NCBI RefSeq assembly: GCF_003334255.1
Contig: NZ_QOWU01000254.1
DNA: 357 bases
Source of the DNA: Escherichia coli
GTDB taxonomy: Bacteria; Pseudomonadota; Gammaproteobacteria; Enterobacterales; Enterobacteriaceae
Reading direction: 5' to 3' (one strand)
Shown here piece by piece: positions 1 to 357 of this stretch. The position numbers were made by a program, and so were the translations under genes. Under the pieces are notes generated by a model. It did no database searches. It was not told the origin of the DNA and saw only the letters and a list, made by a program, of their open reading frames with translations. Positions within the stretch are counted from its first letter, which is position 1. Every line of letters starts with the position of its first letter.

Positions 1-240
1 GAACCCCAGAAAGCGGGGATCGCGTCATTCTGTCCGTACAACATTGGTCCCGGTAAGTGTTTCCCGTCGACGTTTTATAAACGAATTAATGCAGGCGATC
101 GCAGGGGGGCGTGTGAGGCGATTCGCTGGTGGATTAAGGACGGTGGCAGAGACTGCCGTATTCGCTCAAACAACTGTTACGGTCAGGTATCCCGTCGCGA
201 CCAGGAGAGTGCGCTGGCGTGCTGGGGAATTGACAGATAA
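1..240 (+). CDS. rrrD: Phage/prophage endolysin (T4-type lysozyme, glycoside hydrolase family 24), 5'-truncated by the window edge; only the C-terminal 79 codons plus stop are present
   Basis: Seen in sequence: frame 1 is open from base 1 to TAA at 238..240 and translates to EPQKAGIASFCPYNIGPGKCFPSTFYKRINAGDRRGACEAIRWWIKDGGRDCRIRSNNCYGQVSRRDQESALACWGIDR*. GC is about 55% here versus about 44% downstream. Established knowledge (recalled, not searched): this closely resembles the C-terminus of the RrrD/RrrQ-type lysozymes of lambdoid prophages in E. coli and relatives, and the stretch TFYKRINAGDRRGACEAIRWW aligns with the conserved C-terminal region of T4 lysozyme. The gene symbol is family-level only; the exact paralogue or host phage cannot be determined from this fragment. 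The catalytic Glu/Asp/Thr residues and any signal or SAR segment would lie upstream of the window. The ORF track omitted this frame because it contains no ATG/GTG/TTG in-window. Confidence 0.85.
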   Translation, partial: EPQKAGIASFCPYNIGPGKCFPSTFYKRINAGDRRGACEAIRWWIKDGGRDCRIRSNNCYGQVSRRDQESALACWGIDR

Positions 241-357
241 GCAGAATATTTTGCTGAAAAATGCGGTTTGCTCACACGGGCGGATAACACGAAATCCTGC
301 GAACTGACAAAAACTAAGTGAATAAAAGTAAAAACCCCGTTTGTTGGCTGCAAGCGG

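Follow-up and report, generated by a model that had tools for sequence, protein, structure and literature searches.

A conserved spacer with a terminator-like hairpin separates the endolysin gene R from intact Rz/Rz1 spanin genes in H-19B/933W-type prophages of Escherichia coli

Here, we analysed a stretch of 357 nucleotides of Escherichia coli DNA (the window) and conclude that its last 117 nucleotides, positions 241-357, probably form the first part of a conserved spacer within a lysis operon, where a terminator-like hairpin opens an accessory slot and intact Rz and Rz1 spanin genes follow behind. The missing gene start directly after the endolysin gene R is no chance oddity of this copy, because 2026 out of 5426 complete genomes of E. 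coli carry the same spacer at a coverage of at least 80%, in up to 12 places per genome. Indeed, the gap between R and Rz is a family trait of H-19B/933W-type prophages. What was seen in the window is therefore ordinary: it reflects the known lysis layout of these prophages and a window end that falls inside the terminator-like hairpin. Mild novelty is confined to the hairpin, the conserved spacer blocks and the small-ORF cassettes.

The window occurs at 100% identity in several E. coli chromosomes, including a lambdoid prophage in NZ_CP075652.1, and a match to it is present in 3987 of the 5426 complete genomes. It is 94-97.5% identical to PhiR12_1, H-19B and many Stx1- and Stx2-converting phages, in which the gene is always annotated as lysozyme/endolysin R; some window matches carry the annotation rrrQ. 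As the extended locus we used NZ_CP075652.1 61449-71805 (L001), whose coordinates exceed those of the window by 5000. The full-length R gene encodes 177 amino acids (L001 4707-5240; phrog_7 endolysin, E = 2.4e-62), and the R region is 95% identical at the nucleotide level to that of H-19B. R is a lysozyme gene of the H-19B/933W type, and the window consists of its last 240 nucleotides and 117 nucleotides of spacer. Upstream of R, the locus contains in order genes for an SASA esterase, a DUF1378 protein, a DUF826 protein and a class II holin, then a DUF1327 pseudogene and an antisense ORF. From R onwards follow the lysozyme gene itself, two hypothetical ORFs, a 'lysis protein' (5737-6195) and a further hypothetical ORF, and beyond these the small and large terminase, head-tail joining and portal genes. 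All genes lie on one strand except the antisense ORF, and phage PhiR12_1 shows the same gene order. The junction between S and R is also interrupted in this locus, by the truncated DUF1327 (YdfR-like) pseudogene and the antisense 86-aa ORF (L001 3878-4595); the intact version is found in PhiR12_1. Upstream of the esterase gene lie two tandem STnc100 copies (RF02076; L001 114-322 and 518-727), which score 122 and 156 bits (gathering score 47) and are the only matches of a gathering-threshold Rfam search of the locus.

Translation of the window places the R stop at TAA 238-240. An earlier note, made from the window alone, had found no credible gene start in 241-357, and both the translation and the ORF listing of the extended locus bear this out: on the plus strand, no ORF of at least 25 aa starts inside 241-357, and the next one begins with a GTG at L001 5364 (window-equivalent 364), past the window end. 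Its account of the individual frames was accurate but for one detail. Frame 1 past the R stop (AEYFAEKCGLLTRADNTKSCELTKTK) does run without an ATG to the TGA at 319-321. The ATG at 261 does give MRFAHTGG, but the stop had been placed at 282-284, a slip of three nucleotides. The frame-2 ORF that overlaps the end of R does end at 305-307; its tail crosses the spacer, where relatives carry 1-nt indels, and it is annotated in none of the fetched records. The GTG frame at 318 is, as described, open at the window end and lacks a Shine-Dalgarno sequence. In the extended locus it ends after 22 codons (L001 5318-5383, stop 5381-5383), nine codons past the window end, and none of the fetched records annotates it either; it is the terminator-like hairpin read as codons. 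The drop in GC content, put at about 44%, was confirmed as well (43.6% in 241-357 against 55.0% in 1-240). The spacer was judged non-coding on both strands, given the shortness of the ORFs and the 1-nt indels in relatives. The features are collected in Table 1.

Table 1. Features of the window and of the related loci. Positions without a locus name are window positions.
Feature	Position	Strand	Remark
R, lysozyme/endolysin, last 79 codons and stop TAA 238-240	1-240	+	NZ_CP075652.1 annotation
Frame-2 ORF, 87 aa, TTG start, overlaps R end	44-307	+	Spurious
Non-coding 3' flank of R	241-330	+	No credible ORF; 1-nt indels among relatives
ATG mini-ORF of 8 codons, MRFAHTGG, stop TAA 285-287	261-287	+	Not a gene; in hypervariable block of the spacer
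GTG open frame, VNKSKNPVCWLQA...	318-357	+	Not a gene; GTG codon at 318-320
Hairpin 5' arm, loop and first 6 nt of 3' arm	331-357	+	Cut by window end
60-aa ORF	L001 5397-5579	+	Hypothetical, between R and Rz
43-aa ORF	L001 5594-5725	+	Hypothetical, between R and Rz
45-aa ORF of H-19B	L003 1899-2036		Between R and Rz
Sites with the pattern of the hairpin + TTTCTGACCTTGRRTAAGGCAAGG unit	L007 2500-2711; L103, L114, L115, L120, L121, L131, L132		

The complete hairpin occupies the window-equivalent positions 331-363 and is followed by a U-rich tract up to about 372 (L001 5331-5372). It consists of a 14-bp stem with six G-C pairs and a 5-nt loop (AAAACCCCGUUUGU-UGGCU-GCAAGCGGGGUUUU), after which comes GUGUUUCU; the U-rich tract after the stem reads GTGTTTCT, or UUUUGUGUUU when the stem-closing U's are counted to the tail. 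On the plus strand it folds with -21.6 kcal/mol (z = -4.49, reached by 0 of 200 shuffles), on the minus strand with -14.3 kcal/mol (z = -2.42). In the minus-strand form, A-C mismatches take the place of two G-U pairs, which costs 7 kcal/mol of stability. The hairpin could not be seen from the window, because the window end cuts it and the part lying inside (to 357) is not significant (z = -1.07). In its form the element corresponds to a Rho-independent terminator, i.e. a GC-rich stem, a loop of 3-8 nt and a U-rich tract directly after. Over a region of 1.9 kb the number of terminator patterns equals the shuffle expectation (2 vs 2.1), and the case for a terminator rests on the strength and conservation of the single hairpin.

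Among 34 distinct close relatives, pairing is kept in 97.3% of cells. Variation in this set is one-sided (U-G to U-A, G-C to G-U, U-A to U-G) or a rare mismatch; we found no covariation in the stem among these 34 sequences, an alignment that is too conserved for it. Three hairpin variants have a mismatch in the GC core. A scan of IMG/VR for the conserved block after the hairpin, TTTCTGACCTTGRRTAAGGCAAGG, yielded 28 distinct hairpin versions with folding energies between -11.8 and -30.3 kcal/mol, all 28 with a U-rich tail. The diverged copies come from other phage contexts. In them, the inner stem GUUUG/CAAGC is changed to GACUG/CAGUC or GGCUG/CAG-CC, with GAUUG/CAGUC also seen, and an outer A-U is replaced by G-C. 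Compared with the reference stem, these are two-sided changes at three stem positions, as read by hand from the pairs, the gap in the MAFFT alignment A2 being one column off the stem register. From this comparison of sequences, we conclude that the hairpin is an intrinsic-terminator-like element that has been under selection as an RNA structure, chiefly on the plus strand. In the ant-carrying class, an unrelated hairpin with a T-tract (TTTGTCATTT) stands at the same place. This substitute is strong in one locus (L014 3610-3675, z = -4.25) and degenerate in 933W (L006 2575-2640). With its own hairpin being weak (z = +0.72), 933W shows that the R-Rz position does not require a strong terminator.

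The spacer comprises 156 non-coding nucleotides between R and the next ORF, the first 117 of which lie in the window. Divergence across 62 distinct R-plus-spacer sequences revealed an alternation of blocks 5' of the hairpin. The conserved blocks are window positions 241-261, 282-305 and 317-326 (spacer nt 1-21, 42-65 and 77-86, with a divergence of 3.0%, 4.8% and 0.7%), and the hypervariable ones positions 262-281 and 306-316 (spacer nt 22-41 and 66-76, with 29% and 19%). For R, the corresponding values are 16.4% at 4-fold sites and 2.4% at codon positions 1+2; the conserved spacer blocks are thus 3 to 20 times more conserved than the 4-fold sites, and the variable blocks lie at or above the 4-fold rate. 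No coherent or covarying helix was found in spacer nt 1-90 by RNAalifold and a mutual-information scan. The block pattern is compatible with a functional RNA, with a binding site or with recombination between old alleles, and a terminator alone does not explain the conserved blocks in spacer nt 1-86.

Does the spacer encode a regulatory RNA? In this explanation, an sRNA of roughly 130 nt would extend from the R stop through the hairpin, either processed from the 3' UTR of the R mRNA or separately transcribed, with the hairpin and its U-tail serving as an Hfq-binding terminator and the hypervariable blocks as target-pairing regions. We consider this distinctly unlikely, although the contrast of conserved and hypervariable blocks to the R 4-fold sites would fit it, as would an A-rich, A-R-N-like run (AAUAAAAGUAAAAAC) directly 5' of the terminator and its U-tail, and the linkage of the first 86 spacer nt to R whichever hairpin comes next. 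The late regions of EHEC and EPEC prophages are moreover rich in sRNAs (PMC4104026; bioRxiv Pas preprint), and the two STnc100 copies lie upstream in the same locus. Against these points, the plus strand shows no sigma-70-like promoter site, spacer nt 1-90 lack a conserved or covarying structure, and Rfam 15 returned no family for the spacer at E <= 1 other than a sub-threshold match to the rimP leader. A full-text literature search with the spacer and hairpin sequences found no paper that contains them. None of the 63 Sakai Hfq-CRAC peaks lies in an R-Rz spacer (Sp4 and Sp10 checked), in a screen from which sites up to 100 bp from a CDS had been removed and in which only the Sp10 spacer, of the hairpin-less ant type, was read. 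The nearest peaks of Tree et al. 2014 (Table S2), EcOnc11 and EcOnc35, are located beyond Rz or upstream of S. The RIL-seq data from EPEC are uninformative for the spacer, as the PP2 cassette is of the RrrD type with R and Rz adjacent. A known EHEC/EPEC prophage sRNA was ruled out by position: PasA/C lie between esterase and holin and PasD near Q (bioRxiv Pas preprint), and sRNAs of the AgvB/AsxR type at the PR' moron site (PMC4104026).

The sub-threshold rimP-leader match lies on the minus strand (L001 5307-5395; 27.5 bits, gathering score 47, E = 0.15); it is not a real leader, the match being driven by the hairpin. As the sole Rfam near-match, terminator-driven and on the minus strand, it would nevertheless agree with a hairpin that acts mainly on the minus strand, or both ways, and halts antisense transcripts from downstream before they reach R and S. 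So would the minus-strand sequence itself, in which a 9+3-bp hairpin is followed by UUUUUACUUUUAUU, and the A-tract 5' of the stem, which is kept in all variants. Relatives carry leftward genes after Rz (bor in 933W and TL-2011c), and in Sakai EcOnc10/11/12 lie antisense just past Rz. We regard such a minus-strand or two-way role as very unlikely, given the weaker minus-strand fold and the lack of an annotated leftward gene downstream in L001. One minus-strand promoter-like site lies about 40 nt away in the 60-aa ORF and is specific to this cargo variant.

Similarly low, in our estimate, is the probability that the hairpin is not a terminator but a conserved linker for module exchange or an element of RNA stability or processing, such as an RNase III site or a 3'-end protector of the S-R mRNA. 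The clustering of mosaic breakpoints at the hairpin edges (spacer nt 86/95 and 132) would suit such a role, as would the travel of the hairpin with small-ORF cassettes into operons with essential genes downstream, and 933W does without a strong hairpin. However, a U-rich tail is present in every variant, including distant ones with a changed stem. Such a tail typifies intrinsic terminators, and a stability hairpin does not need one. Furthermore, an internal terminator is tolerable in a Q-antiterminated operon.

Lambdoid late operons are transcribed by a Q-modified polymerase that reads through terminators. We propose that, in the lysogen, the hairpin would stop unmodified RNA polymerase arriving from upstream moron or sRNA promoters, and that after induction the Q-modified, terminator-resistant polymerase would pass it. 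The small ORFs, Rz/Rz1 and the head genes would therefore be made only in the lytic programme. The small ORFs of the slot need read-through, because no promoter-like site was found between the hairpin and these ORFs. The conserved R flank and Rz would act as recombination anchors, with the hairpin as the left edge of the slot, and it is because of these proposed anchors that the cargo between them would be exchangeable.

Is the distance between R and Rz a common trait of these prophages? We fetched 80 loci from IMG/VR with the R protein and located R and Rz there and in other loci. In all 84 loci in which both genes could be measured, Rz starts 298-1206 nt past the R stop, and in none are the two genes adjacent. 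The gap lengths form classes of about 307, 344, 435-447, 496-498, 651 and about 1002 nt. The gap is visible in the public annotation of H-19B, TL-2011c and 933W, and its cargo varies, consisting of small ORFs or, as in 933W, of ant, which fills the gap. Mosaic breakpoints were found at spacer nt 86, 95, 132 and 155.

The small membrane-protein ORFs in the gap, i.e. the 60- and 43-aa ORFs of L001 and the 45-aa ORF of H-19B, each have a Shine-Dalgarno sequence and one hydrophobic segment, and their stop codons directly adjoin the following start. They belong to the PHROG families phrog_1115, phrog_4906 and phrog_6632, which have no assigned function, and gave no Pfam or NCBIfam matches. Their pN/pS ratios are 0.18 (60 aa), 0.57 (43 aa) and 0.13 (45 aa), compared with 0.11 for R and 0.50 for Rz, and they are probably real genes under purifying selection.

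Behind them, the Rz gene extends over L001 5737-6195 (152 aa, ATG start) or 5722-6195 (157 aa, GTG start), so that the first spanin start lies at the window-equivalent position 722 or 737, 482-497 nt past the R stop. Rz has a hydrophobic N-terminus (MLSAFIVILLVACGALW...) and matches phrog_13 'Rz-like spanin' with E = 6.2e-74; it combines the N-terminal transmembrane segment and the homology of an i-spanin. Rz1 (L001 5948-6133) is embedded in the +1 frame of Rz, carries the lipobox LVVSAC (MRELKMKLFALTLPLVVSAC|G) of an o-spanin lipoprotein and matches phrog_3198 with E = 1.1e-30. Kongari et al. (PMC6139136) count H-19B, 933W and TL-2011c among the lambda families of embedded i- and o-spanins. 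Rz may start at the GTG at 5722, which overlaps the TGA of the 43-aa ORF (GTGA coupling), rather than at the annotated ATG at 5737; this start would give MNINRML..., parallel to MNRVL... in H-19B.

Neither in the window nor in the extended locus does a spanin start with a ribosome-binding site, or any Rz-homologous ORF, begin inside 241-357, and the statement that no spanin gene begins at or just after the endolysin stop holds in the extended sequence. The earlier note had offered three explanations for this. One, a gene relocated behind a spacer, was essentially right, Rz standing behind the 156-nt spacer and two ORFs. A lost spanin in a degraded cassette is wrong, because Rz and Rz1 are intact with strong PHROG family matches about 0.5 kb downstream in a 100%-identical locus, and the end of the late operon is wrong, because packaging and head genes (terminase, head-tail joining, portal) come next on the same strand. 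Decay or an operon end, to which the lack of a start codon with a ribosome-binding site, the fall in GC content and the DUF1327 pseudogene between S and R could have pointed, has next to no chance of being correct in view of these downstream genes and of a layout shared by PhiR12_1, H-19B, TL-2011c and 933W.

The order of holin, endolysin and i-spanin with embedded o-spanin is the same as in S-R-Rz/Rz1 of lambda and in essQ-ydfR-rrrQ-rzpQ/rzoQ of the K-12 prophage Qin, where rrrQ encodes a 177-aa lysozyme like R here. In Qin, however, rzpQ overlaps the rrrQ stop by 4 nt, and the Rz gene and the end of rrrD also overlap in EPEC PP2, whereas here the spacer, the hairpin and two small ORFs intervene. 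The adjacency in Qin and PP2 is the canonical layout that the earlier note had expected. H-19B, 933W and TL-2011c share with the locus studied here the R gene, the first 86-155 nt of the spacer and the Rz/Rz1 family, and differ in cargo: H-19B and TL-2011c have one 45-aa ORF in a gap of about 307 nt in place of the 60- and 43-aa ORFs, and 933W has ant and a 43-aa ORF in a gap of about 1002 nt with a different, weak hairpin. Intrinsic terminators in Q-antiterminated late operons have, as here, a GC-rich stem, a short loop, a U-rich tail and an upstream A-tract; the present hairpin, a putative terminator, lies between two genes of one functional cassette and not at an operon end. AgvB, AsxR, StxS, PasA-D and STnc100 resemble the spacer in their late-region neighbourhood, in their conserved and variable blocks and in transcripts ended by a terminator, which for the spacer is putative, but they are encoded upstream of the holin or beside stx, none of them in the R-Rz spacer.

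Juhala and co-workers are said to have described morons, in 2000, as promoter-gene-terminator units inserted between conserved late genes. The R-Rz slot is moron-like in that variable extra genes stand between conserved neighbours, which overlap in Qin and EPEC PP2, in that its boundaries coincide with a terminator-like hairpin, and in that the unit of hairpin and small ORFs recurs at other operon positions. Unlike in a moron, the hairpin lies upstream of the small ORFs, which abut Rz without a terminator between them, and no promoter-like site that could give the extra genes a promoter of their own was found.

For H-19B/933W-type prophages, which occur in thousands of E. coli genomes, the absence of a spanin start after the endolysin stop is no sign of a decayed cassette, and annotators and scanning programs should search 0.3-1.2 kb past R for the spanin. 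The R-Rz junction is an accessory-gene hot spot, marked by an unannotated terminator-like hairpin. The overall significance is small. It is unlikely, but conceivable, that the R flank and the hairpin are more than a passive terminator, i.e. a regulatory RNA of the 3' UTR or the leading edge of a mobile cassette. If so, the hypervariable blocks of a 3'UTR-derived RNA would be its target-pairing regions, and the cassette would enter late operons at several sites, where it would tune lysis or superinfection exclusion.

Judged by its sequence, the unit of hairpin, TTTCTGACCTTGRRTAAGGCAAGG and small ORFs looks like a mobile accessory cassette. The hairpin, the ribosome-binding region TTTCTGACCTTGRRTAAGGCAAGG and one to three single-pass membrane ORFs also occur together outside lysis cassettes. 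The unit sits after a 'baseplate protein' gene in several IMG/VR contigs and in a phage recorded under the name Actinobacillus phage vB_Apl-pPE4, and after a 143-aa ORF in L109 (3820-4341). In Sakai, the abundant Hfq-CRAC peaks EcOnc10/11/12 (Tree et al. 2014) lie on the antisense strand just past Rz; EcOnc11, the sole one of the three checked against the annotation, falls in Sp10 at about 5820-5868 of L009, as placed by the Table S2 coordinates on NC_002695.2.
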